The notes: a model not told the origin generated them from the letters alone. Positions 6,189 to 37,071 are shown, numbered from the stretch's first letter. The stretch: DNA of 37,742 nt from Nitrospira sp. (GCA_005239945.1 SBAY01000102.1:1-37742); one strand, 5' to 3'. Made by a program: numbers and translations.

Positions 6189-6254
6189 TTGGAGTTAATT
6201 TTTTAGAATTTTATAATTCATAAAAGGATTAAAAGGCTAAAGCCTAAACTCCAA
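6189..6254. repeat. Degenerate intergenic hairpin (TTGGAGTT...AACTCCAA)
   Basis: 8-bp outer inverted repeat with AAGGCTAAAGCCTAAACTCC heptamer-like run in the right arm. Confidence 0.35.
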
Positions 6255-6290
6255 TTCTCACATATTAGGATGTTCCTTTATTATATTAAA

Positions 6291-6319
6291 ATAATAGCAA
6301 ATAAATTGAATTTAGTCAA
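6291..6319 (-). promoter_or_regulatory. Sigma70-type promoter for HD-GYP gene
   Basis: Minus strand TTGACT-17nt-TATTAT with TG extended -10. Confidence 0.55.
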
Positions 6320-6515
6320 GAAAAAAATCTTGTTAGAGGTAATTCCTCGGTTATCAATTGGTTCCATATCCTGAAAGAGATTACATCACTTCGGAAGGAG
6401 ACGGGCAACGAGCATATCACCTCCGTGACCATTCGCATCGCGCCAGACAGTTCTCCGTTGAGTCCCCATCTTGCCATCGACTCGGGACAACAAGGCATTC
6501 AAATTACCACCTCCC

Positions 6516-7694
6516 TTAAAGTGCTTTAAATACAGCCAGAACTTTATCAAGATGAACCGTTGTATGTGTGGCCATCAAGCTTAGTCTCAGCCGTGACTTA
6601 CCTTTGGGAACAGTCGGTGGTCTTATGGCTGGGACAAAGATACCATTTTCATAGAGGAATTTTGATGCCTGCATCGTTTTAGCCGTATCCCCAATAAATA
6701 CAGGTATGATTTGGGTCGGACTCTCCATCGTATCAAATCCTATGGATTGTAATCCTTCCTTTAAATACCGGACATTTTGCAAAAGTCGAAGTTGAAGTTG
6801 TGGTTCTGTTTGAATTACTTCTAAGGAAGCTAATGCCGTGGCTACTTGAACCGGGGCCAGGGCAGTAGAATAAATAAAACTCCTGGCCTTGTTTATGAGA
6901 TACTCAATCAGGACATTAGAACCAGCAATAAACCCGCCAAGACTCCCCAATGCCTTGCTTAAAGTTCCCATTTGAATATCAATATGCCCATCTAAATCAA
7001 AATATTCCACTGTTCCCCGGCCTTCTTTGCCCAATACCCCTGTTCCATGGGCATCGTCAACCATTACCAGGGCATTATATTTTTCAGCTAAATCCACTAT
7101 TTCCGGCAAAGGGGCAATATCGCCATCCATGCTGAATACCCCGTCGGTAATAATCAATCGAAGTCTTTTGTTTTGGGTTTGTTTGAGGATTTTTTCAAGG
7201 AAAACCATATTTTTGTGTGGATAAACCCTTAAATCCGCCTCACTTAACCTACAACCATCGATTATACTGGCATGATTTAGTTTGTCAACAATGATGACAT
7301 CACCTTTACCTGCTAGGCTTGAAATTACACCAAGATTAGCCGCATAGCCAGAGGCAAAGACTAAAGCCGCCTCTGTCTTTTTAAATTCAGCTAACCTTTT
7401 TTCTAATTCATCATGTAGTGAAAAAGTTCCAGAGATTAATCTTGAGGCACCACTGCCACAGCCAAATCTTTCAATGGCCTCTTTTGCCTTTTCTTTAACC
7501 TTTGGGTGCTGGGTTAATCCTAAATAATCATTGGAGCATAAAAGGATATATTCATCCTGAGCAATTTTAATCGTAGGACCATCACAGGAATCGATTATCC
7601 TTAATTTTCTGGACAAGTCCTGTTTTTCTAACCTATCTAATTCCTCTCTTAAAAAATCCATTTTAGGTGATAAAGGGATGTTTTTTTTAGCCAT
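6516..7694 (-). CDS. bioF: 8-amino-7-oxononanoate synthase (class II PLP aminotransferase)
   Basis: CSNDYLGL, GSGASRLISG, FASGYAAN, DKLNHASIIDG, DDAHG, GTLSKALG, AIRPPTVP; start moved to ATG 7694 because the promoter overlaps the longer GTG start. Confidence 0.9.
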   Translation of the reverse strand: MAKKNIPLSPKMDFLREELDRLEKQDLSRKLRIIDSCDGPTIKIAQDEYILLCSNDYLGLTQHPKVKEKAKEAIERFGCGSGASRLISGTFSLHDELEKRLAEFKKTEAALVFASGYAANLGVISSLAGKGDVIIVDKLNHASIIDGCRLSEADLRVYPHKNMVFLEKILKQTQNKRLRLIITDGVFSMDGDIAPLPEIVDLAEKYNALVMVDDAHGTGVLGKEGRGTVEYFDLDGHIDIQMGTLSKALGSLGGFIAGSNVLIEYLINKARSFIYSTALAPVQVATALASLEVIQTEPQLQLRLLQNVRYLKEGLQSIGFDTMESPTQIIPVFIGDTAKTMQASKFLYENGIFVPAIRPPTVPKGKSRLRLSLMATHTTVHLDKVLAVFKAL

Positions 7695-7701
7695 CTTTTT
7701 T

Positions 7702-7730
7702 ATTCTATCACTCACTTGCTAAAAAGTCAA
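7702..7730 (-). promoter_or_regulatory. Sigma70-type promoter for bioF
   Basis: Minus strand TTGACT-17nt-TAGAAT with TG extension. Confidence 0.6.
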
Positions 7731-7780
7731 CCCGTTTTTTGTCAGAGGCATTCAGGAAATAGCGTTTTTGAAAAAGGTTA

Positions 7781-7856
7781 GCCACAAAAACACAAAGGCA
7801 CTAAATTTCACTAAAATTTCCTTTTGTGGAATTTTGTGTTTTGGTGATTTTGTGGC
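7781..7856. repeat. Intergenic hairpin, CACAAAG/CACTAA 8-mer family
   Basis: GCCACAAAAACACAAAGGCACTAAA ... TTTTGTGTTTTGGTGATTTTGTGGC; ends shared with 32393-32512. Confidence 0.85.
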
Positions 7857-7880
7857 ATATTACAATTAATCGAAATTTTC

Positions 7881-7910
7881 TTGACATTTTTGGTAAGGGT
7901 ATGATATAAT
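7881..7910 (+). promoter_or_regulatory. Sigma70 promoter for mcsA-mcsB-clpC
   Basis: TTGACA-18nt-TATAAT with TGn extended -10. Confidence 0.75.
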
Positions 7911-7984
7911 AAAATTAGGAATTAGGGGAAAATGGTTTTCTCTAATCTATAAATCCTCAATGCTCACAATAAAGGAGGTCAGAG

Positions 7985-8518
7985 ATGTTTTGTGATATTT
8001 GTCAAAAAGAAGAGGCAACTATATTTTATAAAGAAATGGTTAATAATAAATATACCGAGATGCATCTCTGTAAAAAATGTGCCGGTGAGCAAGAAGTCAA
8101 AAATTTACAGATTCCACCGGCTATCACTAATCTTCTCTCTGCCCTGGCTGAATTAAGTGCTGAGGCTGTACCTAAGGAAATAGCCGAGGAAAAATGCCCT
8201 GGATGTGGCTTTACCTATTCGGATTTTCGCGAAAGAGGAAAATTGGGCTGTTCTCAATGTTATCAATCCTTTAGTGAGCCATTGTCTAATATCCTCCGCA
8301 AGATTCATGGTAATATCCAGCATAGTGGTAAATCGCCTGCTACCCTTCCTACCCCCGCTACCCCTTCTGCTGTGCCGCCTGTCAGGGAAACAGAACTATC
8401 AAAGGAAATTGTAGCCTTACGCCAGGCATTAGAGGCGGCGGTTAAAAAGGAAGAATATGAGGAGGCGGCTAAATTACGAGACCAAATCAAGGCATTAGAA
8501 AAGGAAATTATGAATTAA
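7985..8518 (+). CDS. mcsA: Protein-arginine kinase activator McsA (UvrB/UvrC motif)
   Basis: Four CxxC motifs, IHG...H.GK.P, C-terminal EEYEEAAKLRDQIK UVR domain; upstream of mcsB; RBS AAGGAGG. Confidence 0.92.
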   Translation: MFCDICQKEEATIFYKEMVNNKYTEMHLCKKCAGEQEVKNLQIPPAITNLLSALAELSAEAVPKEIAEEKCPGCGFTYSDFRERGKLGCSQCYQSFSEPLSNILRKIHGNIQHSGKSPATLPTPATPSAVPPVRETELSKEIVALRQALEAAVKKEEYEEAAKLRDQIKALEKEIMN

Positions 8519-8600
8519 AAATTATGAATTAAAAATTAAAAATTGAGAAGTAAGAATTGTTTTCCTCAATTTTTAATTTTTAATTCATAATTTTTAATTA
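8506..8600. repeat. Intergenic hairpin, AATTAAA/AATTATG 7-mer family, copy 1
   Basis: AATTAAAAATTATGAATTAAAAATTAAAAATTGAG ... CTCAATTTTTAATTTTTAATTCATAATTTTTAATT; provides the mcsA stop codon. Confidence 0.93.
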
Positions 8601-8620
8601 TACGAGGAGCCCACAGGATA

Positions 8621-9679
8621 ATGGATATAAAAAAGATTGTCGAGACCCCAGCAGAATGGTTAAATAATACCGGTACCCATGCGGATATTGTTATCAGCAC
8701 ACGAGTAAGGTTAGCTCGCAATCTCGACGGCATACCATTTACCAATTGTGCCAAAGAGCCTGAGATTAACAAGGTCATTTCCGAGGTAAAAAATGCCGTT
8801 AAAAATAATCCCTATCTGACTAATGCAAGTATGCTCGATTTAAGCCAGGTAAATAATTTAGTTAAACAATTTTTAGTTGAGCGACACCTGATTAGTCGTG
8901 AGTTAGCCGAAAATAAAAAAGGGATTGTTTTTGTAGGTGATAAAGAGCTGATAAATATTATGGTCAATGAAGAAGACCATCTGCGGATACAGACCTTTTC
9001 TTCTGGATTAGAGCCACAGCGAACATGGCAGATGATTAACCAGGTAGATGATGAATTATCTAAATCATTAAAATATGCCTATTCATCGAATTGGGGTTAT
9101 TTGACTGCCTGTCCAACCAATGTGGGCACTGGTATGCGCACATCGGTGATGATACATCTACCGGCACTCGATATTACTAAACAGATACGAAAAATACTTC
9201 ATGCTATCTCCCAAGTAGGATTGGCTATTCGTGGGCTTTATGGTGAGGGAACAGAGGCACTGGGTGATTTCTTTCAGATATCTAATCAAATAACGCTTGG
9301 TAGGAGTGAGGAGGAAATAACGGAAAATATAGAGAAAATCACTAACCAGATTATTGGTCATGAGCAAAAGGCACGAGAGGTGTTAATCAAGGAAAATCGA
9401 ATTCAATTAGAAGACCAGATTCTGCGTGCTTATGCTACCTTAGCCTATGCCCGGGTTATCTCCTCAAAAGAGGCTTTAGAACTCCTGTCATTAGTTCGCT
9501 TAGGCGCAGGCATCGGATTGATCAAAGAGGTCTCATTAAAAGTGATAAATGAGTTATTGGTTCTTTCTCAACCGGCCAATGTTCAATTATTAGCCGGTGA
9601 GGTTCTAAGTAATCCGGCTCGTGATGTCAGACGAGCGATTATAATTCAACAAAAATTATTCAGGGAGAAAATAAAGTAA
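8621..9679 (+). CDS. mcsB: Protein arginine kinase McsB
   Basis: STRVRLARN, LVERHLIS, MVNEEDHLRIQ, GYLTACPTNVGTG, RGLYGEG, QISNQITLG. Confidence 0.96.
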   Translation: MDIKKIVETPAEWLNNTGTHADIVISTRVRLARNLDGIPFTNCAKEPEINKVISEVKNAVKNNPYLTNASMLDLSQVNNLVKQFLVERHLISRELAENKKGIVFVGDKELINIMVNEEDHLRIQTFSSGLEPQRTWQMINQVDDELSKSLKYAYSSNWGYLTACPTNVGTGMRTSVMIHLPALDITKQIRKILHAISQVGLAIRGLYGEGTEALGDFFQISNQITLGRSEEEITENIEKITNQIIGHEQKAREVLIKENRIQLEDQILRAYATLAYARVISSKEALELLSLVRLGAGIGLIKEVSLKVINELLVLSQPANVQLLAGEVLSNPARDVRRAIIIQQKLFREKIK

Positions 9680-9792
9680 GGTATCAGGTATCAGGTGTCA
9701 GGTGTCAGGTAGGAAGAAAAGAGAAGTTAGGAGAAAAGAGTTTTTCACTGACTCCTAATTCCCCTCTCCTTCCTGCCTGATACCTGATACCT
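9679..9792. repeat. Intergenic hairpin, GGTATCA/GGTGTCA 7-mer family
   Basis: AGGTATCAGGTATCAGGTGTCAGGTGTCAGGTAGGAAG ... CTTCCTGCCTGATACCTGATACCT, with inner TTAGGAG/CTCCTAA stem. Confidence 0.9.
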
Positions 9793-9819
9793 AAATTATT
9801 AATTGATGAGGTGAAAAAA

Positions 9820-12282: not shown

Positions 12283-12285
12283 GGT

Positions 12286-12849
12286 ATTTACATCCCCCGT
12301 AATATTGAGAAAACCCTAAAAGGGTTTGTTGAACAATTCCCTGTGGTTATTCTGACTGGCCCCAGACAAGCAGGCAAATCTACATTACTTTCCAATCTCT
12401 TCGGGAATACATATAATGATTAATGTTGAGTTGCTAGGGGCCGGGATGTGCTCCCAATATTGGATACATTATTAATGCTTGAAATACCACAAACTGTGGG
12501 TTTCAGTAACCCGCAGTTAGCTCCAACGACTTGTTATTGCATAAGGTCTCGAGAGTTTTATCATTACTCCCTGCTTTTACCCTATATACTTAATTATGGT
12601 CATGAGATCCAGCTGGGTTAAAGTATCTACCCCATAATGTCTCATTCGGATATTTCTTCGGAATATGTATAATTTTGCTGCCTGTTATTATTTATTTGCG
12701 ATAACATTATCTCCTTCGATGACCCTCTCATCAGTGAAAGGGCTTTATCTGACCCCTATCTTTTCTTAGATACTGCTGGGGATAAGGTGATATTTGATGA
12801 AATCCACTATGTCCCAGAACTTTTACCTTATATAAAAATACTTATTTTT
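12286..12849 (+). pseudogene. AAA_14/DUF4143-type ATPase pseudogene, interrupted and truncated
   Basis: YIPRNIE...VVILTGPRQAGKSTLL (Walker A) up to 12416, resumes at 12705 with IISFDDP...VIFDEIHYVPELL (Walker B); similarity ends at the hairpin at 12846; no canonical start codon. Confidence 0.85.
12417..12704 (-). mobile_element. Gene-less integron-cassette-like insertion (288 bp) with attC-like site at about 12411-12540
   Basis: Minus strand begins G|TTATCGC, contains GCAATAAC-AAGTCGTTGGAGCTAACTGCGGG...GCAACTCAACATTAATC-ATTATAT; removal restores the ATPase frame. Confidence 0.72.
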
Positions 12850-12946
12850 AACCACAAAGTTCACAAAGATAAACAATATAACCCTTTTTCATCTTTTATT
12901 CTTTGTGTAATTTGTGCCTCCTTTTGTGAACTTTGTGGTTAAAATA
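12846..12946. repeat. Intergenic hairpin, CACAAAGTT family
   Basis: TTTTAACCACAAAGTTCACAAA ... TTTGTGAACTTTGTGGTTAAAA perfect outer stem. Confidence 0.9.
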
Positions 12947-12997
12947 GTATCGCACCAAAATTCACGAAACTCCAGATAATACCAATGAGAAAAAATT

Positions 12998-13606
12998 ATG
13001 ACGGGAATTATTTTGGCCGGTGGTAAAGGCAGTCGACTGAAGAATATCAATAAACCCCTTATTAAATTAGGCAGGTTGACTATTATTGAGCAGATTATTG
13101 TTAGGTTAAAAGAATCTTCATGTGAAGAGATTGTCATCTGTAGTGGTCAAAACCCAATCAAGGATACAATCCTTGATGGTCTAACCCAAATTGAGGACAT
13201 CATTCCTCACCAGGGACCATTAGCTGGGCTTTATAGTGGACTTATGGCTTCCAGGAGTTTTTATAATTTTGTTGTTGCCGGTGATATGCCTTTTTTGAGT
13301 ACCAACCTGATTAAGTATATGAAGGATAAAGCAGGTAACGCGGATATTCTCGTCCCTAAAACCCAAAGAGGGATAGAACCCCTTCATGCCATCTATTCTA
13401 AAAATTGTCTGGATGTAATCAAGCAAAAAATATTTAGTGAAAAGGAGAAACTTTCACTTGAATCTATTTTTACTGAGTTAAAGGTAGAATATATCTTAGA
13501 GGATGAGATACGGCAATTTTCCTTACCCGAGATGGTATTTTTTAATATTAATACACCCGAGGATATAAAAGAAGCAAAACGATTAATGAGAAGGTTGGAA
13601 AGGTAA
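12998..13606 (+). CDS. mobA: Molybdenum cofactor guanylyltransferase
   Basis: ILAGGKGSR..NK, GPLAG, DMPF, EPLHAIY, FFNINTPED. Confidence 0.9.
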   Translation: MTGIILAGGKGSRLKNINKPLIKLGRLTIIEQIIVRLKESSCEEIVICSGQNPIKDTILDGLTQIEDIIPHQGPLAGLYSGLMASRSFYNFVVAGDMPFLSTNLIKYMKDKAGNADILVPKTQRGIEPLHAIYSKNCLDVIKQKIFSEKEKLSLESIFTELKVEYILEDEIRQFSLPEMVFFNINTPEDIKEAKRLMRRLER

Positions 13607-13691
13607 TTGGTAATCAGGTAATCGGGTAATTGGTAACAACCAATTGAGACTTTTTCTTTACCGATAACCTGATTACCTGATTACCGGTTAC
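13602..13691. repeat. Intergenic hairpin, GGTAATC(A/G) family
   Basis: GGTAATTGGTAATCAGGTAATCGGGTAATTGGTAA ... TTACCGATAACCTGATTACCTGATTACC; supplies mobA TAA. Confidence 0.9.
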
Positions 13692-13699
13692 TGGCATTA

Positions 13700-14917: not shown

Positions 14918-14934
14918 TTTAGTCTCCTTTTTTT

Positions 14935-15589
14935 AAAGAATAGGTCATATAGGACTTATAGGACTTATTCTTTCTCTTCCCTTTCTTCGCGATTGATAAA
15001 GCCTTTCCGTGAATCCACCTTCTTCTAAAAATTGTTTTTCTAATTGCCGCAATAACTGGTCAAGCAAATAATTTGCCTGATGAATCAGGCAGATAAGAAC
15101 ATTTGCAGCTACTTCAAGCGAGCTTTGTTCGATATAGGTCTTATAAGTCTTATATGACCTATTCTTCTCCCATGCAAGATTTCTGATTGCTTGAGCCTGT
15201 GGGTGAGATTTATCCCAGAGTATCAATCCTTGCTGTCGCAGAATGTCTTCGTAATCCGCCAGTAGTTCCTCAAGACTTGCACGAGCCACACCCATCAGTT
15301 TTAGCTCGGTTTTCTTTGATGTACCTGATGCCATGCTGCCTTCAGCAATATTTTGTTTGCCACTACGCGATGCCTGTACCATTTGATCATGAGTGCGAGA
15401 ACGCTTGTCAATAAAACGATTACAGAATACCACCGTAGCATCATAAATAATTTCTGTAGTCTGATAAGATTTCAGGTTGCGGTATCCACCATGTGGGGTA
15501 ATCAAGTTTGGTTTTTCATTCATTGTTTTTTTCCTTTATATGTCCTATGGGTCTTATATGACCTATAGGACATATATGACCTATTCTTT
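14935..15589. mobile_element. Four-helix-bundle gene cassette bounded by 17-bp inverted repeats built from 9-mer TATAGGAC(T/A)/TATAGGTCA units
   Basis: AAAGAATAGGTCATATA (14935-14951) and TATATGACCTATTCTTT (15573-15589) are exact reverse complements; mobility is inferred. Confidence 0.65.
14945..15523 (-). CDS. Four helix bundle protein with suffix domain (23S rRNA IVP-like family)
   Basis: HGGYRNL.SY, RTHDQMVQASRSGKQNIAEGS, ARASLEELL.DYED, C-terminal FLEEGGFTERLY. Confidence 0.88.
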   Translation of the reverse strand: MNEKPNLITPHGGYRNLKSYQTTEIIYDATVVFCNRFIDKRSRTHDQMVQASRSGKQNIAEGSMASGTSKKTELKLMGVARASLEELLADYEDILRQQGLILWDKSHPQAQAIRNLAWEKNRSYKTYKTYIEQSSLEVAANVLICLIHQANYLLDQLLRQLEKQFLEEGGFTERLYQSRRKGRERISPISPI

Positions 15590-18037: not shown

Positions 18038-18050
18038 CTAATTCTCTTAA

Positions 18051-18801: not shown

Positions 18802-19095
18802 CTTCAATTCAGACATTAGACAATAGACATCCGATATTAGACTTAAGAGAGAAAAATGTTTGATGTCGTAACCGTTCAGGTTGTTTAGGCTATAGGTTGT
18901 AGACTGTTAGCTGTTGAGTATTGATGACCCAAAATCTTCTCGTTTTCCATGTTTTTGAGTTGCAATCAAAACCGTGGTTATCAAATTCCCTGAGTTTCAT
19001 ATCATCTCACATACCTCCGCCCTACAGCCTAAATGCCTACAGTCTATCTACCTGAACGGTTACCTGATGTCTATGGTCTAATGTCTGAATTGAAG
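18802..19095. repeat. Intergenic hairpin, TAGACAT 7-mer family, interrupted by MITE
   Basis: CTTCAATTCAGACATTAGACAATAGACATC ... GATGTCTATGGTCTAATGTCTGAATTGAAG. Confidence 0.88.
18868..19063. mobile_element. MITE copy 1 (196 bp)
   Basis: TIR GTAACCGTTCAGGT/ACCTGAACGGTTAC; 8-bp flanks TTGATGTC/CTGATGTC; highly similar to 26142-26336. Confidence 0.9.
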
Positions 19096-20444: not shown

Positions 20445-20513
20445 GAATTTTCGATTTTCGATTTTCGATTTTCGATTGAGGATATAAGACCCCTCAATCC
20501 AAAATCCAAAATC
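20445..20513. repeat. Intergenic hairpin, TTTTCGA/AAAATCC 7-mer family
   Basis: (TTTTCGA)x4 TTGAGG...CCTCAATCCAAAATCCAAAATC between mrdA and rodA. Confidence 0.9.
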
Positions 20514-22344: not shown

Positions 22345-22386
22345 TTATAGGACTTATAACTCTTATAGAACATATAAGTCCTATAA
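22345..22386. repeat. Empty 9-mer TATAGGACT hairpin
   Basis: TTATAGGACTTATA ... TATAAGTCCTATAA perfect 14-bp stem between mreD and mrdA. Confidence 0.85.
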
Positions 22387-22912: not shown

Positions 22913-23018
22913 GAATAAAATAGGTTATCACTTATCGGTGATCAGGTTATCGGTAAGGAAAACACAATAATCGGTTGCTTCTAATTACCGATTACTGACT
23001 ACCTGATTACCGACTACC
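22913..23018. repeat. Intergenic hairpin, GGTTATC/GATTACC family
   Basis: GAATAAAATAGGTTATC..ATCGGTAAGGAAAACACAATAATCGGTTG..TTACCGATTAC..; supplies mreC stop; near copy at 26363-26597. Confidence 0.85.
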
Positions 23019-23902: not shown

Positions 23903-23947
23903 AGGTAATCGGTTATCAGGTAAGTATTTACCGATAACCCATTACCT
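23903..23947. repeat. Intergenic hairpin, GGTAATC/GGTTATC family
   Basis: AGGTAATCGGTTATCAGGTAAGTATTTACCGATAACCCATTACCT between mreB and mreC. Confidence 0.85.
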
Positions 23948-25031: not shown

Positions 25032-25053
25032 TATTTACCACCCCTTCTTTATA

Positions 25054-25146
25054 AAAATTAAAAATTATGAATTAAAAATTAAAAATTGAGGAATTACGAA
25101 TTAAAATTCCTCAATTTTTAATTTTTAATTCATAATTTTTAATTTT
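25054..25146. repeat. Intergenic hairpin, AATTAAA family, copy 2
   Basis: Perfect 42-bp stem with 9-nt loop, in the predicted mreB 5' leader. Confidence 0.95.
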
Positions 25147-25158
25147 GTGTCCTGATAT

Positions 25159-26129: not shown

Positions 26130-26141
26130 CTTTACCTCTAC

Positions 26142-26336
26142 GTCACCGTTCAGGTTGTTTAGGCTATAGGCTGTAGACTGTTAGCTATTGAGTATTGTCC
26201 ACCCAAAATCTTCTCGTTTCCCATGTTTTTGAGTCGTAATCAAAACCGTGGTTATCAAATCCCTGAGTTTCATATCATCTCACATACTTCCGCCCTACAG
26301 CCTGAATGCCTACAGTCTATCTACCTGAACGGTTAC
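26142..26336. mobile_element. MITE copy 2 (195 bp)
   Basis: TIR GTCACCGTTCAGGT/ACCTGAACGGTTAC; perfect 8-bp TSD ACCTCTAC (26134-41, 26337-44), which contains the TPR gene RBS. Confidence 0.92.
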
Positions 26337-26374
26337 ACCTCTACCAGGCAAGCCTGATTGCAGAATAAAATAGG

Positions 26375-26545
26375 GTAACCGTTCACGCCACCAAGACACT
26401 AAGACACCAAGATTACAGAAATAACTGGGGTCTGCTCGTTTGGTAGTTTGTAAATCATATGCCAGTAGACTACCAGGCAACAGACCACCAGCCTACTAAT
26501 TTATTATTCCTTTGTGTCTTTGTGCCTTAGTGGCTGAACGCTTAC
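26375..26545. mobile_element. MITE, same TIR family but different interior (171 bp)
   Basis: GTAACCGTTCA...TGAACGCTTAC; perfect 8-bp TSD AAAATAGG; interior CACCAAGACACTAAGA / CTTTGTGTCTTTGTGCCTTAGTGGC arms. Confidence 0.9.
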
Positions 26546-26640
26546 AAAATAGGTTCTCGGTAAGGAAAACGCAATAATCGGTTGTTACCGATTACCTTAT
26601 TCCCTCCTCCCTTACTTCTGACAATACCACATAATAACTA

Positions 26641-26710
26641 ACTATACCATAAGTTTAATGATATGTCAATTAAAATTAGTCATTGACAATAGAAAAAAAT
26701 ATGGTATAAT
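26641..26710. promoter_or_regulatory. Back-to-back divergent sigma70 promoters (TPR gene / diguanylate cyclase)
   Basis: Minus: TTGACA(26669-64)-17-TATAGT; plus: TTGACA(26683-88)-16-TATAAT; both preceded by TGG. Confidence 0.72.
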
Positions 26711-26729
26711 GGTAAGAAGAAGGTGGAAA

Positions 26730-26792
26730 GGTAGGGAAATGGGTTATGGGTAACATACTTACCTGATTACCGATTACCAGTTTCCGATTACC
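26730..26792. repeat. Intergenic hairpin, GGTAATC family (inverted near-copy of 23903-23947)
   Basis: AATGGGTTATGGGTAACATACTTACCTGATTACCGATTACC. Confidence 0.8.
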
Positions 26793-26811
26793 AAAACAAA
26801 AGGAGGTTGGG

Positions 26812-26908
26812 TAATTAAAAATTATGAATTAAAAATTAAAAATTGAGGAAAGGGAAAATCATAAGTTCTTTTTCCTTTCCTCAATTTTTAATTCATAATT
26901 TTTAATTA
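26812..26908. repeat. Intergenic hairpin, AATTAAA family, copy 3
   Basis: Same left arm as copies 1 and 2, different loop, followed by TATGAGGAGG RBS. Confidence 0.93.
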
Positions 26909-26926
26909 TATGAGGAGGGTTGAAAA

Positions 26927-28653: not shown

Positions 28654-28695
28654 TTTAGGGAGGTGAAAACCAAAAATGCAAAAAAGGAGAAAGAT

Positions 28696-28775
28696 GAAAT
28701 TCGATATTAGAAATTAGAAATTGTGGAAAGAGATAAAACGAGAAGTCCTAATTTCTAATTTCCAATTTCTAATTT
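28696..28775. repeat. Intergenic hairpin, AAATTAG 7-mer family
   Basis: GAAATTCGATATTAGAAATTAGAAATT ... CTAATTTCTAATTTCCAATTTCTAATTT. Confidence 0.85.
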
Positions 28776-28799
28776 TAGCAAGAAATCACAGGAAAAACG

Positions 28800-29663: not shown

Positions 29664-31120
29664 AAATATTGTTAATCAATCCACCGGCAGAAAATACATT
29701 AAAAGGGAATAACCCTTCTATCATCGATGAAGAACGCGGGTATAATCCACCCTTAGGATTACTCTACCTAGCCGGTTATCTGGAGAAACATACCTCTCAT
29801 CAAGTAGAGGTGATAGATACACAGGTAGAGGAAATAGGTTATGAGGGGTTAGCGGCTAAAATCAGGCAGATAAAACCCGATGTTGTCGGCATTACTGCCA
29901 TGACATTTACCTTGCTTGATGTGCTTAAAATCGCTAATCTTGCCAAAGATATCTCTTCGGAAATCAAGGTTGTCTTAGGTGGTCCGCATGTGTACATTTA
30001 CCCCTCTGAAACAATTTCTCTGCCGCAGGTGGATTTTTTAGTCTTAGGCGAGGGAGAGGTTACTTTTGTAGAATTGGTGGATAACATCCATTTGGTGGAA
30101 AAATTAAAGGAGATACCCGGGTTAGTCTTTAAATCCGATGGACAGATAATCAATACCGGTCTGCGGAATTTCATTAGCAATTTAGATGAATTACCGTTTC
30201 CAGCAAGACACCTTGTCCCCTACACAAAATACTCCTCCTTGATTGCCAAACGAAAACCTATAACGACAATGATTACCAGTCGTGGTTGTCCTTACAAATG
30301 CACCTTCTGTTCCAGACCACATCTTGGGAAGCGATTCAGGGCTCATTCAGCTAAATATGTCGTTGGTGAGATGGAGGAGTGCACCAAACTTGGCATTAAT
30401 GAGTTTTTGGTCTATGACGATACCTTTTCTGTTGACCGCCAGCGGGTATTGGATATTTGCCATGAAATTTTAGCTAAAAAATTAGATATTGGTTGGGACA
30501 TTCGGACAAGGGTAGATACGATTGATGAAGAAATGCTCAAAAGGTTAAAACAGGCTCATTGTGAAAGAATCCATTATGGTGTCGAGGCTGGAACCGAAAA
30601 AATACTCAAGGTCTTAAGTAAGGGAATTACACTCGATCAGGTAAAGGCGGCCTTCCAAATGACTAAAAAGGCAGGTATCTCTACCTTAGCTTACTTTATG
30701 ATTGGCTCACCGACAGAGACCAAAGAGGATATTTTGCAAACCATCAAATTTGCCAAAGAGCTAAATCCCGATTTTGTCCACATAACCATCACCACCCCAT
30801 TTCCGGCAACGGCTATTTACAAAAGGGGGCTTGAGCAAGGAATTATAAAAAACGATTACTGGCAGCAATTTGCTCAAAATCCCACGCCGGACTTTCAACC
30901 TCATTATTGGCAGGAAAACCTGACCCAAACCGAATTACTTGAATTAATCGATTACACCTATAAAGGCTTTTATACTCGCCCAACTTATATCATAAAAGAG
31001 TTACTTAAGGTCAGGTCATTTGGGGAATTTAAAAGGAAGATGAAGGCAGGATTGAAGGTAGCCGGGAGTAGACCAATAACCACCTCTTCTTTGCATCATG
31101 CCTCAGTTACCGGTTGGTAA
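29660..31120 (+). CDS. B12-binding domain radical SAM protein
   Basis: PPLGLLYLA, GGPH, GEGE, TSRGCPYKCTFC (CxxxCxxC), GVEAG. Confidence 0.93.
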   Translation: MKILLINPPAENTLKGNNPSIIDEERGYNPPLGLLYLAGYLEKHTSHQVEVIDTQVEEIGYEGLAAKIRQIKPDVVGITAMTFTLLDVLKIANLAKDISSEIKVVLGGPHVYIYPSETISLPQVDFLVLGEGEVTFVELVDNIHLVEKLKEIPGLVFKSDGQIINTGLRNFISNLDELPFPARHLVPYTKYSSLIAKRKPITTMITSRGCPYKCTFCSRPHLGKRFRAHSAKYVVGEMEECTKLGINEFLVYDDTFSVDRQRVLDICHEILAKKLDIGWDIRTRVDTIDEEMLKRLKQAHCERIHYGVEAGTEKILKVLSKGITLDQVKAAFQMTKKAGISTLAYFMIGSPTETKEDILQTIKFAKELNPDFVHITITTPFPATAIYKRGLEQGIIKNDYWQQFAQNPTPDFQPHYWQENLTQTELLELIDYTYKGFYTRPTYIIKELLKVRSFGEFKRKMKAGLKVAGSRPITTSSLHHASVTGW

Positions 31121-31259
31121 GCCATCAGTTATCAGATTACGATTACAATTTTGGATTTTGGATTTTCGATTTTGGATTAAAGATATTAAGATTCCTCAAT
31201 CCAAAATCGAAAATCCAAAATCCAAAATTTCATTTGGTATTAACTGATAACTAAGGCAT
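31098..31259. repeat. Nested hairpin: outer CAGTTAT family, inner TTTTGGA/AAAATCC family (31148-31229)
   Basis: ATGCCTCAGTTA...TAACTAAGGCAT enclosing four TTTTGGA-type units and four AAAATCC-type units; loop resembles that of 20445-20513. Confidence 0.88.
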
Positions 31260-31273
31260 TACTTCTTTGTCTC

Positions 31274-32254: not shown

Positions 32255-32392
32255 ATTAGATAACCCTCCATTGTTCAATAATTTAGACTTCTGCAAAATT
32301 CATAAGCTGCTGATACTTCAGCAAATTATGTAATCATTTTTCTTGACTTTCCCCCATAATCTAACCCCCACTCCTTTACACACATTTTTTTA

Positions 32393-32512
32393 GCCACAAA
32401 AACACAAAGAGAGAGCTTTGAGCCTGGAGCATAGAGCCTGGAGAAAAAAGAATTTCCCTGCTCCGTGCTCTTTGCTCAATGCTAATTCTTTGTGTCTTAG
32501 TGACTTTGTGGC
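32393..32512. repeat. Nested hairpin: outer CACAAAG family, inner GAGCAT/GAGCCT 7-mer family (32414-32483)
   Basis: GCCACAAAAACACAAAGA [TGAGCCTGGAGCATAGAGCCTGGAG...TGCTCCGTGCTCTTTGCTCAATGCT] TCTTTGTGTCTTAGTGACTTTGTGGC. Confidence 0.88.
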
Positions 32513-34114: not shown

Positions 34115-35815
34115 ATGAGCAAAAGTGAAGGTAATAACCCAAAAGCAAATTCCTATCAGTTGAATGAAAATGTACATTTTGACTTAGATGGATTTTTTAA
34201 TGTTAATATCCTACCGCAAGGGATACTACTCACAGTACACCCTCCTAAAGGAAAAGGTAAGAAGGTAAATATTGACGATGTGATAGCTCAAATTAATGCA
34301 TTAGAGATTACTGATATTAATCTTAACTTAGTCAAAATAGAGGTTGAGGAAAGTTCTGGCAAGCCTGTTGTAATTGGTAAACGGGATGTGGAGAAAAAGG
34401 TACCTCCCAAATGTATAGTAAAAATACCAAAAGATGAAATGAATGCCTATCTAACTATTATCTCACCTACTTCAGGTGCTGAATCTGTAAAATTAATGGA
34501 TGTTAAAGAGGAGTTAGCTAAAAAAAGCGTTATATTTGGTATTAATGATAGAATAATTCGTGAGGCAATAGAGAAAAAAGACCTTGATAGAGCTATCTTA
34601 GTTGCCCAGGGGCGAATGCCTGTAAATGGAATTAATGCAAGAATTGAGGGTAAATTTAAGAAAAGGACACAAATTCAATTTAAAGAGGATGAATTTGGCA
34701 AAGTTGACTTCCATGAACTTGGCTTGATTCAGAATGTTACCCCAGGACAGGTATTAGCAGTTAAAACGCCTCCTACTGAAGGCACTCCAGGCAGGACAGT
34801 TACCGGTAAAGAGATAAAGGCTAAGAGAGGATTAGATGTACATATTCCTGCTGGAAAGAATACAGAACTGTCATCGGATGAGCTAATACTGACTTCTAAA
34901 GTTGCTGGACATGTAAATTGGATAGAAGGACGGATAGAGGTAGAACATCTTTACACTGTGACAAAAGATGTTGATTTCAAAACAGGAAATATTGACTATG
35001 TAGGTACAGTAATTATAAGTGGTAGTGTAAAAGGTGGATTTAAGGTCAAGGCAAGTGGTGATATTCAGGTTGGAGGCTCAGTAGAAAGTGCGTACATTGA
35101 GGCAGGTGGAAATGTGCTGATTAAAAATGGTGTAATAGGAAGGGGTGCAGCACGAGTTAAAGCCGGTAAGAATATTATTACTAAATTTGCTGAAAGTTGT
35201 ACATTAGAAGCCAATGAAGATATTATAGTTAGTGGATCAATTTTACATAGCAATATAAGAGCTGCTAAAAGGGTGATAGCTACTGATCGCGAAGGGACTA
35301 TTTTAGGTGGACGGGTATTGGCAGGAAGAGGGGTGTATGCTAAAAAGATTGGTTCCTGGTCAGAGGTTAAAACTTCTATTGAGGTGGGCGTAGCTCCAAA
35401 CATTAGAACTGAGGTTATGTCTTTAGCAGAACAGGTAGATCAAGACAAAGAGCGGCTTAAAAAATTGCAACTTGAAGTAGCTACTTTGCTTAAACAAAAA
35501 ACACGATTAGGACAAGACTTCTCTCCAGAGAGAATGCAACTACTTAGTAGCCATCTTAAAGAACAAGGTCAGTTAGTGACGAGATTACGTGGTGCACCAG
35601 AGAAATTATCAAGCATAAAAAAGCAATTTTTTCAAAAGACATTTGGTAAAATTTGTGCCTCCGAAGTAGTCTATCCTGGAGTAAAGATATGCATCAGTTC
35701 TGCAATACTATTTGTAAAAGAGCCATATAAATATGTTACCTTTATCGCAGAGGAAGGTGAGATAGTAATCAGGTCCTACGAAGATCCAACAAAATTTTCT
35801 AAAGAGGGGATATAA
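34115..35815 (+). CDS. FapA/DUF342 family protein
   Basis: A.G..PVNG, G.VDF.EL, P.EG.PG.TVTG, DVDF.TGNI...G, beta-helix repeats, coiled coil, VYPGV.I. Confidence 0.88.
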   Translation: MSKSEGNNPKANSYQLNENVHFDLDGFFNVNILPQGILLTVHPPKGKGKKVNIDDVIAQINALEITDINLNLVKIEVEESSGKPVVIGKRDVEKKVPPKCIVKIPKDEMNAYLTIISPTSGAESVKLMDVKEELAKKSVIFGINDRIIREAIEKKDLDRAILVAQGRMPVNGINARIEGKFKKRTQIQFKEDEFGKVDFHELGLIQNVTPGQVLAVKTPPTEGTPGRTVTGKEIKAKRGLDVHIPAGKNTELSSDELILTSKVAGHVNWIEGRIEVEHLYTVTKDVDFKTGNIDYVGTVIISGSVKGGFKVKASGDIQVGGSVESAYIEAGGNVLIKNGVIGRGAARVKAGKNIITKFAESCTLEANEDIIVSGSILHSNIRAAKRVIATDREGTILGGRVLAGRGVYAKKIGSWSEVKTSIEVGVAPNIRTEVMSLAEQVDQDKERLKKLQLEVATLLKQKTRLGQDFSPERMQLLSSHLKEQGQLVTRLRGAPEKLSSIKKQFFQKTFGKICASEVVYPGVKICISSAILFVKEPYKYVTFIAEEGEIVIRSYEDPTKFSKEGI

Positions 35816-35817
35816 AG

Positions 35818-36576
35818 ATGCCTTTAATTGGTGAAGTATTAGTTAAGGAAGGGATAATAACCAATGAACAACTTCAACAAGTATTAAATGAACAAACTAA
35901 GACAAGTAAGATGTTAGGTGATACATTGGTAGATTTAGGCTTTACTACTGAAGAGATTGTGATGCATTTCATCACTTCACAGGTGTTATCTCTAATTGAC
36001 GATTATCAAGCGGAAAGTCCAGAGATATTTGCATTAAAGAAAGAAACTCCAGATATAAGTCAGATTGAAACACCGAAGGTAAGGGATGAACGGGTGGTTA
36101 TAGTAACTAAACCCAAAGAGCCAAAGAAAAAAGATTTTAAGCGATTATCTGTTAGTAGATTAAGACTGAGAAAAGCGAAAGAATTATTTGAAGTTGGCAA
36201 GTATTTTAAAGCGGCTTTAAATGCACGATATGCTATGTATCATGCTGCAAGAGCAGCTATTTGCGCTACAGAGGATACACCTTTTAGATCATGGGAAGAG
36301 GCTACAACCATTGGCTTGAGATTTACATATAGAGGATATATAGATGCAGGAGAGATTGAAGGTTGTCTGGTAGCATTACGGACTTTGAAAGAGGAAAAAG
36401 ATCGTGTGATACCTAAGAGTGAAACAAAAATAATAATTGATAAAGCTGAGAATTTTGTAATAAGGGTTGAAGAGACTATTAAAAAATTAGAAGAAGATAA
36501 AAAACCTCAGATTGCACAGATTAAAGGGGGAAAAGCCGATGTTTTAGGGAGAACTGGGAGAACTGAGGAGAACTGA
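35818..36576 (+). CDS. Protein with N-terminal MshEN-like domain and C-terminal HEPN-like domain
   Basis: LIGEVLVKEGIITNEQLQQVLNEQ..MLGDTLVDLG; AKELFE.G.Y..A...A.YAMYHAARAAI ... IDKAENFV. Confidence 0.65.
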   Translation: MPLIGEVLVKEGIITNEQLQQVLNEQTKTSKMLGDTLVDLGFTTEEIVMHFITSQVLSLIDDYQAESPEIFALKKETPDISQIETPKVRDERVVIVTKPKEPKKKDFKRLSVSRLRLRKAKELFEVGKYFKAALNARYAMYHAARAAICATEDTPFRSWEEATTIGLRFTYRGYIDAGEIEGCLVALRTLKEEKDRVIPKSETKIIIDKAENFVIRVEETIKKLEEDKKPQIAQIKGGKADVLGRTGRTEEN

Positions 36577-37071
36577 GGGACACATCCGAATGGCACTAAC
36601 TTAAGGAAAAATTAAATAAAAGACCTCCAGATGTCGATTTTAATTTTAGAGTATGGCTAAGTGCAGATGTTTTAAGATCAAAGACAGAAAAAGGGATTTA
36701 CAAAGAGTTGCATGCGAGAATCATTGCCTTCAATTTGATACATTGGTTAATATTGAAGGCTGCCAAGAAGCATAAAAAGGATTCAGAGAGAATCAGCACC
36801 TCATCAACACTCAGATTAACAGCCACTTATAGTTTAAAAATGAGTACGGCACCTTTTTGAATATTACCATTACTTTATGAAGATTTGCTTGAGAAAGTAG
36901 CCTATTCAAAAGTTCCATATCGACCTGATCGACTTGAACCACGAATGAAGAGGCGTGACCAAAAACATTATCCGATATTGAAAATATCCCGCATAGAATG
37001 AGGGAGAGGACTATCAATGGAATTGCTGCTTAAGTTAGTGCCATTCCCCTCTGACTCCAATTCTTCCTTAA
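36544..37071. repeat. GAGAACTG(A)G 9/10-mer hairpin arms enclosing the IS4 remnant
   Basis: TTAGGGAGAACTGGGAGAACTGAGGAGAACTGAGGG ... CCCTCTGACTCCAATTCTTCCTTAA; right arm degenerate. Confidence 0.55.
36588..37046 (+). mobile_element. Internally deleted IS4-family element (459 bp)
   Basis: Perfect 18-bp TIR GAATGGCACTAACTTAAG; interior encodes a stop-containing transposase C-terminus (ADVLRSKT...KELHARIIAFNLI...RPDRLEPRMKRR). Confidence 0.85.

Follow-up and report, generated by a model that had tools for sequence, protein, structure and literature searches.

Tandem-repeat hairpins at the gene junctions of the window

We analysed a stretch of 37,742 nucleotides of Nitrospira sp. DNA (the window), which carries the mcsA-mcsB-clpC and mreB-mreC-mreD-mrdA-rodA genes, and found about 22 elements at the places where a first reading of the sequence, the original prediction, had put them. 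All repeat units listed in that prediction are present and, as it claimed, every junction within both gene series is occupied; beyond the mre junctions, hairpins also lie in the mreB 5' leader and downstream of rodA (Table 1). The mreB promoter is TTGACA-17-TATAGT at 25187-25159. Near-identical copies of the AATTAAA foldback at mcsA-mcsB recur at 25054, at 26812 and on further contigs. The mrdA-rodA hairpin falls inside the longest rodA ORF, yet the alignment to the RodA model does not begin before residue 42 of that ORF. The four-helix-bundle locus comes after a split TolC gene, and among its 9-mer arrays (14936-14968, 15133-15166 and 15536-15584) the middle one is complementary to both outer ones. 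The MITE nested downstream of rodA has a flanking duplication that agrees at 7 of 8 positions, and the family of the TAGACAT outer arms around it has 22 long matches in the genome. When stretches of the window were folded, 15 of 16 gave z-scores of -3.8 to -13.6; the exception, 18800-18860, comprises a single outer arm and served as internal control.

Table 1. Repeat elements of the window, in order of position
Feature	Position	Strand	Details
CACAAAG-family hairpin, bioF / mcsA promoter gap	7781..7856	.	arms 7781-7818/7820-7856; fold z -6.7
AATTAAA heptamer foldback, mcsA-mcsB junction	8509..8602	.	44/45 pairs; z -9.75
GGTATCA/GGTGTCA heptamer foldback, mcsB-clpC junction	9679..9792	.	arrays 9679-9711 and 9776-9792; z -9.1
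CACAAAG-type inverted repeat, 55-nt loop	12838..12950	.	28/28 pairs; z -6.7
GGTAATC heptamer/octamer foldback between convergent mobA and efflux-adaptor genes	13603..13691	.	z -9.35
Four-helix-bundle + suffix-domain gene framed by three TATAGGAC-type 9-mer arrays	14936..15584	-	gene 14945-15523; TIGR02436, TIGR04258, PF05635
TAGACAT heptamer foldback downstream of rodA, nested MITE inside	18802..19095	.	arms 18802-18831/19066-19095; 29/30 pairs
196-nt IS66/ISBst12-type MITE, GTAACCGTTCAGG ... CCTGAACGGTTAC, in loop of TAGACAT foldback	18868..19063	.	36 copies, 95-97% identity
AAAATCG/AAAATCC heptamer foldback, mrdA-rodA junction	20447..20513	.	arrays 20447-20477 and 20496-20513; z -4.6
TATAGGACT hairpin, mreD-mrdA junction	22345..22386	.	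18/20 pairs; z -5.0
GGTAATC/GGTGATC foldback, mreC-mreD junction	22935..23013	.	z -4.6
GGTAATC/GGTTATC foldback, mreB-mreC junction	23903..23947	.	20/22 pairs; z -6.4
AATTAAA foldback, mreB 5' leader, between promoter and ribosome-binding site	25054..25146	.	44/46 pairs; z -13.6
Second copy of 196-nt IS66/ISBst12-type MITE	26142..26336	.	
GTAACCGTTCA-ended element, CACCAAGA 8-mer arms	26375..26545	.	65/78 pairs; arrays 26389-26412 and 26509-26532
TTACCGA heptamer array, inverted partner not found	26759..26792	.	array scan
AATTAAA foldback directly upstream of ribosome-binding site of diguanylate-cyclase gene	26812..26908	.	42/43 pairs; z -11.9
GGTAGAGGTAAAG / CCTTTACCTCTA inverted arrays, 70-nt loop	28545..28657	.	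z -3.8; right arm conserved in G001
AAATTAG foldback within ~140-nt insertion	28696..28775	.	start of glycosyltransferase gene displaced
Composite: outer GTAATGCC/CAGTTAT arms around inner AAAATCC heptamer foldback (31147-31229)	31097..31263	.	62/69 pairs
CACAAAG outer arms, nested GAGCAT(A)/GAGCCTG inner arms	32392..32505	.	z -7.6; 19 long matches

Genome-wide distribution of the hairpins

The genome to which the window belongs (G000, 2.94 Mb) is a MAG of 386 contigs, many of which end in hairpin repeats. A genome-wide scan for tandem and inverted repeats, as the original prediction had proposed, bore out the system: we counted 1134 period-7 tandem arrays versus 78 in the mononucleotide-shuffled genome, 435 of the 1134 with an inverted partner no more than 600 nt away. 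Arrays with an inverted partner number 597 genome-wide versus 6 after shuffling, and intergenic hairpins of at least 16 pairs 726 versus 83. The array units are mostly 7 bases long, sometimes 8 or 9, and 886 of the 1134 period-7 arrays are intergenic, in a genome whose intergenic share is only ~15%. Long hairpin-forming heptamer repeats occupy most gene junctions of this groundwater bacterium.

The hairpins fall into dozens of dispersed conserved sequence families with up to ~66 copies. Counting matches that span 70% or more of the query, the AAAATCC hairpin has 66, of which the best reach 97-99% identity; the 196-nt element has 36, and the families of CACAAAG and GAGCAT have 26 and 19. Between unrelated loci, copies agree at 97-99%, loops included, and both the composite at 31097-31263 and its inner AAAATCC hairpin are multi-copy. 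Read depth over the elements is 4-15x baseline, and independent contigs break at the high-copy hairpins. The predicted single family, defined by structure rather than sequence, is not borne out: the elements make up many conserved sequence families and at least three classes. The first comprises the plain heptamer foldbacks, the second the IS66/ISBst12-type MITEs, and the third is a TA-flanked MITE whose core is an AAAATCC hairpin. These classes nest inside each other, as both kinds of MITE insert into foldbacks or carry them, giving nested composites.

Position and polarity are strongly constrained. At codirectional junctions holding a solo hairpin (n=133), the 5' arm begins a median 9 nt past the stop codon, within 10 nt in 69 cases, and the 3' arm ends a median 22 nt ahead of the next start, at 11-30 nt in 74; the hairpins take up the space from the stop codon to the next ribosome-binding site. 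The G-rich arm is nearly always the 5' one, with 5'-arm G exceeding C in 199 versus 32 hairpins of G000, 36 versus 1 in the same-genus genome G001 and 18 versus 5 in other relatives. Asymmetric families are strictly oriented relative to the genes: 15/15 codirectional-junction copies of the CACAAAG/GAGCAT(A) element (32392..32505) and 12/12 of the CACAAAG-family hairpin (7781..7856) share one orientation, and a third family has 12/14. Such strict orientation suggests that signals are carried by some copies.

An IS66/ISBst12-type MITE subclass

The subclass with GTAACCGTTCAGG ends is an IS66/ISBst12-type MITE with 8-bp duplications. Its end motif, GTAAC(C/T)GTTCAG, has 189 matches in G000 versus 40 in the shuffled genome and occurs as 29 convergent pairs, most often 196 nt long. 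Perfect 8-bp flanking repeats border 11 of the 31 GTAAC...GTTAC pairs, and 7 more agree at 7/8 positions (read by eye); filled versus empty sites at L150/C272 and C186/L087 confirm the 8-bp target-site duplication. The termini match the ends published for ISDge4 of the IS66 family (ISBst12 group), given as GTAACTGCTCAGCA with an 8-bp repeat, and in a related genome the same ends bound a DDE_Tnp_IS66 ORF (G004:C198). This likeness covers only a minority of the elements: GTAAnnnTT ... AAnnnTTAC stands at both ends of 3 of 209 array-armed heptamer foldbacks. Within G000, neither an intact IS66-family transposase (a weak fragment scores 24 bits) nor an autonomous partner of the plain foldbacks was found.

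Turnover at orthologous junctions

The elements are non-autonomous repeats that vary between relatives both by presence and absence and by replacement. Genes of G001 share ~90% nucleotide identity with those of G000, and in ~300 kb the two genomes have 29 alignable gaps; 16 are filled in both, mostly by different families, and at the remaining 13 an element is present in one genome while the gap of the other is short. A separate comparison added 12 further gaps. The comparison of orthologous junctions called for by the original prediction thus turned up both empty sites and different families within one genus.

The window itself contains examples of either kind. G001 lacks both the composite at 31097-31263, where it has an empty site and the window a duplicated CAAAGAA, and the 28690-28790 insert, where it reads an uninterrupted ATGCAAAAAGTAAGC and the window insert is flanked by CAAAA(A)G. 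At mcsB-clpC, G001 has the same family with other unit numbers and G003 an unrelated 9-mer hairpin; at mcsA-mcsB, G003 has a GGTAAAT hairpin in place of AATTAAA. An unrelated GGGAGGATGAGA hairpin occupies mreC-mreD in G001 and a TGTAATG hairpin mreB-mreC in G003, and mreD-mrdA measures just 8 nt in G002 and G004. The mreB leader holds GGTATCA in G001, AATTATC in G003 and nothing in G009, between a conserved promoter and ribosome-binding site. Outside the window, the content of flgF-flgG changes from genome to genome: a four-helix-bundle cassette in G000, hairpins of GTGAATA in G001 and of AATGTAA in G003, an AGAAGAC array in G002, and in G004/G005 a four-helix-bundle cassette other than that of G000. 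The G000-type four-helix-bundle gene recurs in G003 at another locus, with 79% nucleotide identity and AATTATG arms. Plain foldbacks show clear target duplications in two or three cases (for example ATAAAAAT in L062/C297), which could equally be microhomology deletions.

Gene-carrying forms and rRNA inserts

The original prediction regarded the four-helix-bundle cassette as a gene-carrying form of the hairpins, and this held well beyond the window. Inverted arrays enclose all eight good TIGR02436 (PF05635) genes of G000, with another unit for each gene; when aligned, their proteins share 15-45% identity with the first sequence, and they match the solved homologues 2RLD and 2GSC. Of 27 four-helix-bundle loci in the phylum, 17 reach a score of 30 or more. 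Across phyla, 51 of 79 loci do so versus 4 of 79 mismatched controls, and at a score of at least 40 the count is 32 versus 0. The periodic arms in this cross-phyla set, which includes the cultured isolates Bosea, Pseudaminobacter and Nostoc, have period 7 in 46/46 cases, and 45 of 46 cassettes have the G-rich arm 5'. One GxxExxY gene, another passenger that had been anticipated, is enclosed by foldback arms in the same way. Over 18 genomes, a small sample of related genomes, array density correlates with four-helix-bundle gene density (Spearman rho 0.50, p 0.03), and the three genomes without such genes are among those with the lowest array densities.

Neither of two further known systems could be matched to these components. 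For a diversity-generating retroelement, with Avd as its accessory gene, a reverse transcriptase would be expected near the TIGR02436 genes; none lies on the 10 matching contigs, which are short so that linkage was tested to a few kb, and the reverse-transcriptase matches of G000 are on C231, C192 and C124. As to a REPIN/RAYT system, a RAYT-like ORF on C35 reaches 68.4 bits, below the cut-off of 80, and has no arrays within 260 nt. The two Y1 transposases of G000 likewise have no arrays beside them.

Heptamer-armed hairpins also interrupt rRNA genes of relatives (the 23S gene of G000 is not in the assembly). The 23S inserts measure 87-91 nt and are located near reference position 1276-1317 in G018 and G013 and near 765 in G012.

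Interpretation

We read the junction hairpins as genome-wide palindromic foldback repeats that are probably selfish, non-autonomous DNA resembling the intervening sequences (IVS) of 23S rRNA. Such an element would insert into the gap that follows a stop codon and precedes the next ribosome-binding site, or else into a 5' leader or an rRNA helix, and its two arms would pair in the transcript, folding the insert out of the way. RNase III, which G000 encodes (rnc, 266 bits), probably cuts the stem, by analogy with the excision of rRNA IVS described in bioRxiv 10.1101/2024.02.27.582315. Flanking genes would stay functional and the insert harmless. The arrays may change length by slippage while the arms stay complementary, and in gene-carrying forms the loop contains a four-helix-bundle gene (PF05635/TIGR02436, Avd-like) or a GxxExxY nuclease-family gene.

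The hairpins might instead benefit the host as RNA elements, that is, as operon-internal processing, stability or translation-insulating signals comparable to REP/BIME stabilisers or RNase III sites, whose structure is kept while the sequence is replaceable. We consider this unlikely, even though several observations speak for it. Different sequences fill the same junctions in nearly all relatives (flgF-flgG in 6/6 genomes examined, the mreB leader in 6/7), an occupancy to be expected from a host function but no less from elements that prefer existing hairpins as targets. The hairpins fit closely into the space from stop codon to ribosome-binding site, orientation in some families is strict, and given the G-first polarity, transcription from either direction yields an RNA whose purine-rich arm emerges first. 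The stems themselves do not speak for it: on the sense strand, G:U and A:C mismatches number 604 and 564 (p 0.25), and in period-7 arms 149 and 157. G:U pairs are not above A:C, and therefore nothing shows selection on the RNA stem, which weighs on our own reading as well. Local maintenance would also leave the near-identical copies at unrelated loci, with their identical loops, to be explained, which point to recent copying. Many orthologous junctions are empty or 8 nt long, as mreD-mrdA is in two relatives, gene ends are disrupted by elements (a GT2 start, a radical-SAM C-terminus), and hairpins are present in rRNA genes too.

A purely mutational origin, in which replication slippage favouring 7-base units and template switching build palindromic arrays in AT-rich spacers without any mobility, appears quite improbable. 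Several observations would suit it: the two arms of a hairpin, and likewise orthologous copies, can differ in how many units they have, as at mcsB-clpC in G001, there is a 65-nt array expansion, in one case (L146/C165) the unit resembles the flanking sequence, and heptamers are over-represented repeats in many bacteria, according to PMC4692102. Such an origin would not by itself place identical elements with their loops at dozens of loci, put unrelated units between conserved flanks within one genus, move cassettes with the same gene to different loci in G000 and G003, or create the 8-bp duplications of the MITE subclass.

That the hairpins are ordinary intrinsic terminators or attenuators is very improbable. 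Strong stems at gene ends and the T-rich 3' arm of AT-rich families would suit this role, but stems of 30-45 pairs far exceed those of terminators, and the hairpins are found within the mre and mcs/clpC operons and in stretches that separate a promoter from a ribosome-binding site. Moreover, a scan of 6000-25999 that counts loops of 3-8 nt only found no enrichment of terminator-like sites (20 versus 16.9 expected), and none of the 20 coincides with a hairpin, in agreement with the predicted lack of consistent U-tracts. An assembly or binning artefact, which a MAG of so many contigs with repeats at their ends might bring to mind, can practically be dismissed, as an independent assembly of the source sample spans several hairpins at 100% identity in longer pieces and the architecture recurs in at least 20 other genomes, cultured isolates included.

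Building on the reading of the hairpins as selfish foldback repeats, we tentatively raise a broader possibility, on which we would not insist: heptamer foldbacks and PF05635 genes may form one widespread, unrecognised mobile 'intervening' class, with the Avd-like pentameric protein as its dedicated trans-acting factor. The 7-base arrays, in DNA or RNA form, would be what this protein recognises; it would favour their being copied or protected, and hairpins that lack a gene would depend on it as non-autonomous members. One possible route would be synthesis of the G-rich repeat strand followed by fold-back copying. If true, this would unify cyanobacterial STRRs, the heptamer repeats of Xanthomonas and Beggiatoa, and rRNA IVS, and explain both the fixed 7-base period and the 5' G-rich arm.

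Comparison with known systems

Eukaryotic Foldback (FB) transposons end in long inverted repeats that consist of short tandem repeats, and some copies carry genes. Neisseria Correia elements are co-transcribed intergenic inverted repeats that are cut by RNase III, with arms that are not tandem arrays. The elements described here have no sequence or protein relation to either, and FB transposases are absent. With REP/BIME and RAYT-mobilised REPIN sequences they share the form of short extragenic palindromes at high copy inside operons, where doublets form hairpins; unlike these, they have tandem-array arms and many unrelated families, and the RAYT-like gene has no arrays beside it.

Heptamer repeats of the STRR type were reportedly described in cyanobacteria by Mazel in 1990, and the 886 intergenic arrays of G000 are likewise tandem 7-mers in intergenic DNA. 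Further intergenic tandem 7-mers are GGGAATC of Xanthomonas and GGGGA(T/C)T of Nostoc; in Xanthomonas, 70-75 convergent inverted pairs can form stem-loops, and their length and sequence vary between close species (PMC4692102). TAACTGA heptamers occur in Beggiatoaceae, Cyanobacteria and Bacteroidetes, in arrays just upstream of start codons (PMC4679880). As far as their accessible text goes, the earlier heptamer reports deal with one unit each and offer no mobile-element reading, whereas here a single genome has dozens of units, most of them arranged in foldbacks whose 5' arm is the G-rich one. Nor does that text link the repeats to PF05635 genes or rRNA IVS, and that of PMC4692102 contains nothing on 23S, intervening or XCC0516.

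[quoted passage not shown] Unlike these, the present elements occupy mRNA leaders and the spacers between protein-coding genes, their arms are tandem heptamers and most are gene-less. RNase III cuts the stem of rRNA IVS without ligation, and we propose that it may do the same here. The two groups meet in the heptamer-armed inserts in 23S genes of relatives and in the PF05635 genes found between arms, in copies that lie between protein-coding genes.

Tandem-repeat hairpins fill most gene junctions of the window

The window belongs to a 2.94-Mb metagenome-assembled genome (G000; 386 contigs, GC 38%) from a groundwater sample and carries ordinary genes: RNase J, bioF, mcsA-mcsB-clpC, mobA and a MacAB-TolC-type efflux cluster, together with rodA-mrdA-mreD-mreC-mreB, diguanylate cyclases and glycosyltransferases. 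The spaces between them hold about 22 elements that share the architecture proposed in the original prediction, namely tandem short units, a loop and the inverted units, and one hairpin sits at each junction of mcsA-mcsB-clpC and mreB-mreC-mreD-mrdA-rodA, just as had been claimed. Fold z-scores ranged from -3.8 to -13.6 in 15 of 16 window stretches, the sixteenth being a lone outer arm that provided an internal control. Rfam gave no family match across the window, and none of 20 terminator-like sites (6000-25999) falls on a hairpin, which bears out the view that the hairpins are not terminators. In the mreB leader, the hairpin has a conserved promoter (TTGACA-17-TATAGT) on one side and the ribosome-binding site on the other. 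The window also holds other remains: a transposase fragment at the contig end, a stretch of about 450 nt that is probably a decayed insertion sequence, its short ORFs having no family match, and a non-coding region downstream of clpC that is probably a pseudogene remnant.

Features discussed in the text. Match counts are from BLAST of window elements against G000, for matches spanning at least 70% of the query; L-numbers denote compared loci and C-numbers contigs
Feature	Location	Matches in G000	Identity
PF02371 (IS110/IS116/IS902-family transposase) fragment	window 3-227 (- strand)
CACAAAG family	window 7775-7862	26
Non-coding, no long ORF; P-loop ATPase gene fragments (by eye)	window 12283-12835
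Four-helix-bundle gene	window 14945-15523
ORF of this gene and its three 9-mer arrays	window 14936-15584
N-terminal bundle	between arrays 15536-15584 and 15133-15166
TIGR04258 suffix domain	between arrays 15133-15166 and 14936-14968
TolC-family gene, split	window 15516-16860 (- strand); ORFs 15892-16860 and 15516-15890
196-nt element	window 18868-19063 and 26142-26336	36	95-97%
Foldback containing a 196-nt element	window 18802-19095
Insert with AAATTAG hairpin	window 28690-28810
Radical-SAM gene end	window 31090-31120
Composite element	window 31097-31263
Inverted repeats of about 18 nt (GAATGGCACTAACTTAAG ... CTTAAGTTAGTGCCATTC) around about 450 nt	window 36590-37060
AAAATCC hairpin		66	best 97-99%
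TAGACAT arm		22
GAGCAT family		19
AATTAAA foldback directly upstream of RNase III gene (7082-7738)	G000:C18:6939-7024
Three tandem copies of 19-nt palindromic unit (CAGGTTTTAAACCTG core)	L149 (G001:C11) 14278-14336
Gaps occupied in both G000 and G001 (examples)	L155/C290, L162/C132, L165/C186, L167/C329, L174/C21, L177/C138
Group I-like introns in 23S genes	L317 (G001:C266), L316 (G018:C71), L318 (G013:C34)

The hairpins belong to a genome-wide population of several classes

Across G000, TRF located 1134 period-7 arrays, compared to 78 in the shuffled genome. An inverted partner within 600 nt accompanies 435 of the 1134, and for arrays of period 5-11 this arrangement was found 597 times, compared to 6 in the shuffle. 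Of the 1134 period-7 arrays, 886 are intergenic, in a genome whose coding share is about 85% as judged from a crude ORF call. When 1331 intergenic regions were scanned by alignment, hairpins of 16 pairs or more numbered 726, compared to 83 after shuffling. There are 225 distinct canonical heptamers, headed by AAAAATT (131 arrays) and AAAATCC (126), and copies of one family have loops, not arms alone, in common. The proposal of mobile elements defined by structure rather than sequence thus stands as far as dispersed repeats are concerned, but the elements form conserved sequence families and fall into several classes. In independent contigs of the source sample, read depth over elements reaches 150-575, up from about 37-47; these contigs end at high-copy elements and cross several others at 100% identity. 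The elements are therefore a cause of assembly fragmentation and not artefacts of assembly.

For 133 solo hairpins at codirectional junctions, the distance from the stop codon to the 5′ arm had a median of 9 nt (10 nt or less in 69), and that from the 3′ arm to the next start codon a median of 22 nt (11-30 nt in 74). The hairpins take up the spacer that separates the stop codon from the ribosome-binding site. In the CACAAAG family, the sequence is conserved well past the hairpin on both sides, in the window and in copies on other contigs, and in 6 of 12 codirectional copies the next ORF is 134-140 nt away; the true unit is accordingly longer than the hairpin and may include a promoter or similar signal.

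One subclass could be assigned to a known type. The motif GTAAC(C/T)GTTCA occurs 189 times in G000, compared to 40 in the shuffle, and forms 29 convergent pairs with a modal length of 196 nt. As read by eye, 8-bp flanking direct repeats are perfect in 11 of 31 pairs and match at 7 of 8 positions in 7 more. In the related genome G004, an IS66-family transposase ORF is bounded by ends identical to those of the MITE, and ISDge4 (IS66 family, ISBst12 group) is reported to have ends GTAACTGCTCAGCA and an 8-bp repeat. Taken together, these matches identify the 196-nt subclass as an IS66/ISBst12-type MITE. Since IS66-type ends were present on only 3 of 209 array-armed hairpins, the plain heptamer foldbacks form a separate class. 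The classes are also found combined, with a MITE lying inside a foldback in the window and the AAAATCC hairpin forming the core of a TA-flanked MITE. Searches of G000 for a partner yielded just one IS66 fragment (24 bits), which lacks matching ends in its vicinity, and two Y1 transposases (Y1/RAYT), with no arrays adjoining either. A derivation of the 7-base period from a 7-bp target duplication was rejected, as the duplications are 8 bp. The spread of plain foldbacks and the cause of their 7-base period are what we infer rather than observe.

Elements turn over between close relatives

Comparison of orthologous junctions revealed presence/absence variation and not the fixed elements that would have counted against the original prediction. 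The same-genus genome G001 has an MreB 99% identical to that of G000, and genes of about 90% nucleotide identity. In the mreB leader, where promoter and ribosome-binding site are conserved, the element is AATTAAA in the window, GGTATCA in G001 and AATTATC in G003, and the site is empty in G009. At mcsB-clpC, GGTATCA is kept in G001 with differing unit numbers, and G003 has an unrelated 9-mer hairpin. Among 29 alignable intergenic gaps (about 300 kb of G001), 16 were occupied in both genomes, mostly by different families, and at 13 one genome had an element and the other a short gap; a separate comparison added 12 gaps.

Insertions also reshape coding ends. Relative to G001, the composite element is an insertion with a CAAAGAA duplication on its flanks, and the radical-SAM gene takes its final codons and its stop codon from this element. 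Likewise, an insert of about 140 nt with an AAATTAG hairpin, absent from G001, displaced the start of a glycosyltransferase, which compared to G001 has a new start codon and a new N-terminus. A different repeat type, the 19-nt palindromic triplet of G001, is missing at the orthologous G000 site.

Foldbacks carry four-helix-bundle genes across phyla

In G000, inverted tandem arrays frame all eight good TIGR02436 (four-helix-bundle) genes, with a different unit each time, and one GxxExxY (PDDEXK_3) gene is framed likewise; both kinds of passenger had been anticipated in the original prediction. Identity of the TIGR02436 proteins of G000 to the first aligned sequence is only 15-45%. No reverse transcriptase accompanies a TIGR02436 match on the same contig (10 short contigs, covering linkage over a few kb), and the genes are thus probably not Avd genes of diversity-generating retroelements (DGRs).

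The copy in the window has a TIGR04258 suffix domain and is framed by three 9-mer arrays, the middle one able to pair with either neighbour. Its ORF runs through the middle array, so that each domain lies between two arrays; given this layout, the gene looks like two fused loop-borne modules with two alternative hairpins possible. The neighbouring TolC-family gene is split in two, the 3′ end of its smaller ORF extending into a 9-mer array of the cassette, which may reflect a frameshift or remodelling of the gene end by insertion.

At flgF-flgG, a cassette armed with AATTAAA occupies the site in G000, hairpins or arrays of other units that enclose no gene are found in G001, G003 and G002, and a different cassette is present in G004 and G005. 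The G000-type gene reappears in G003 at another locus, adjoining a tRNA gene, with 79% nucleotide identity and AATTATG arms that are still complementary to each other. According to this comparison, cassettes move and their arms evolve in concert. Closer proteins have more alike units (rho 0.18, a value attained in 0 of 500 permutations), a correlation that we do not count as support for protein-unit specificity, because co-inheritance of gene and arms explains it equally.

Within the phylum, 22 of 25 species genomes contain TIGR02436 genes (1-35 copies each), and inverted flanks scoring at least 30 were present at 17 of 27 loci examined. Array density correlates with density of four-helix-bundle genes over 18 phylum genomes (rho 0.50, p 0.03), and the three genomes without such a gene have among the lowest array densities, both in a small and non-independent sample. 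A cross-phylum scan with a single protein, one genome per species, gave 80 loci (79 usable), which owing to the single query represent one subfamily of four-helix-bundle proteins. They come from Planctomycetota, Acidobacteriota, Alpha-, Beta- and Deltaproteobacteria, Bacteroidota, Cyanobacteria, Chloroflexota, Armatimonadota, Verrucomicrobiota, Nitrospirota, Actinomycetota, a CPR lineage and others, and include three cultured isolates. Inverted flanks scoring at least 30 were found at 51 of the 79 loci, compared to 4 of 79 mismatched controls, and at a threshold of 40 at 32 loci and no control. All 46 arms with clear periodicity had period 7. Two solved structures, the pentamers 2RLD and 2GSC, match the protein profile, and 2GSC is reported to be homologous to DGR Avd.

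Polarity of the arms and possible roles in RNA

Array-armed hairpins have a consistent handedness. The 5′ arm has more G than C in 199 hairpins of G000, compared to 32 of opposite polarity, with ratios of 36 to 1 in a G001 sample, 18 to 5 in other relatives and 45 of 46 in cassettes across phyla. Abundant families are uniform: AAAAATT 25 to 0, AAAATCC 23 to 0, AAATTAG 11 to 0 and GGTATCA 9 to 0. A transcription-coupled orientation (G-rich 5′ arm on the sense strand, 113 vs 12) was rejected, as a palindrome gives the same arm first on both strands. For this reason the handedness is intrinsic to the element, not an orientation to genes, and a BLAST-strand test is uninformative for near-perfect palindromes (AAAATCC, 12 vs 11). 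From the sequence, RNA transcribed from either side would expose the purine-rich arm first. The G-first polarity could possibly be due to selection, in that Rho could load onto an unpaired C-rich arm if this were the first to emerge, and a purine-rich arm beside the downstream start might be mistaken for a ribosome-binding site, or to the mechanism of origin, if synthesis began with the G-rich strand and fold-back copying of that strand followed.

The 23S rRNA gene is absent from the G000 assembly, and the following observations concern relatives, whose 23S genes measure 3054-4724 nt compared to a 2925-position model. Short hairpin inserts with tandem-heptamer arms were present in the 23S genes of G018 and G013 (around position 1276-1317) and G012 (around 765). 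The 23S genes of three relatives have group I-like introns (616-1467 nt, around position 2083-2112), and 23S introns of relatives hold LAGLIDADG homing endonuclease-like ORFs (family assigned by eye), G001 having two. Intervening sequences (IVS) of rRNA are cut out by RNase III without ligation, as reported (bioRxiv 10.1101/2024.02.27.582315). G000 encodes RNase III, and by analogy with rRNA IVS the mRNA-borne hairpins would probably be cut out by the same enzyme.

A host role for some copies may exist: asymmetric families are strictly oriented to flanking genes (GAGCAT 15/15, CACAAAG 12/12, the 196-nt MITE 12/14), and certain junctions are occupied in every relative examined. Against it, stem mismatches are strand-symmetric, with 604 G:U vs 564 A:C on the sense strand (p 0.25) and 149 vs 157 in period-7 arms, which is evidence against an RNA-level function. 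For positions 18000-27999 of the window, the listed sequencing runs are two DNA runs of one groundwater sample and no RNA run.

Relation to known repeat systems

In sum, the observation behind the original prediction is confirmed, and its interpretation is partly supported and considerably extended. On the practical side, heptamer foldbacks break short-read assemblies, shift annotated starts and stops, and can serve as a rapidly changing marker to tell close strains apart. Tandem heptamer repeats have been on record for decades in cyanobacteria, Xanthomonas and sulfur bacteria, to our knowledge without an accepted origin or role. For the PF05635 '23S rRNA-intervening sequence protein' family, the sole studied relative that we are aware of is Avd of DGRs, and we know of no function outside these retroelements. 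Heptamer repeats, MITEs and IVS are known kinds of element, and part of the present finding may already be in print. Published accounts describe heptamer repeats in Xanthomonas, including 70-75 convergent inverted pairs, and in Nostoc (PMC4692102), as well as in Beggiatoaceae, Cyanobacteria and Bacteroidetes (PMC4679880); in the parts of these two papers used here, the repeats are not connected to PF05635 genes or IVS. A full-text literature search, covering main texts, returned no paper joining PF05635/TIGR02436 genes to heptamer foldbacks. The present data join the two, placing the genes within heptamer foldbacks in at least 12 phyla, with gene-less copies of the cassette architecture occupying operon junctions, mRNA leaders and rRNA helices. 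With this tie, the question can be put to the test in carriers available in culture, such as Xanthomonas campestris (XCC0516), Nostoc and Bosea.
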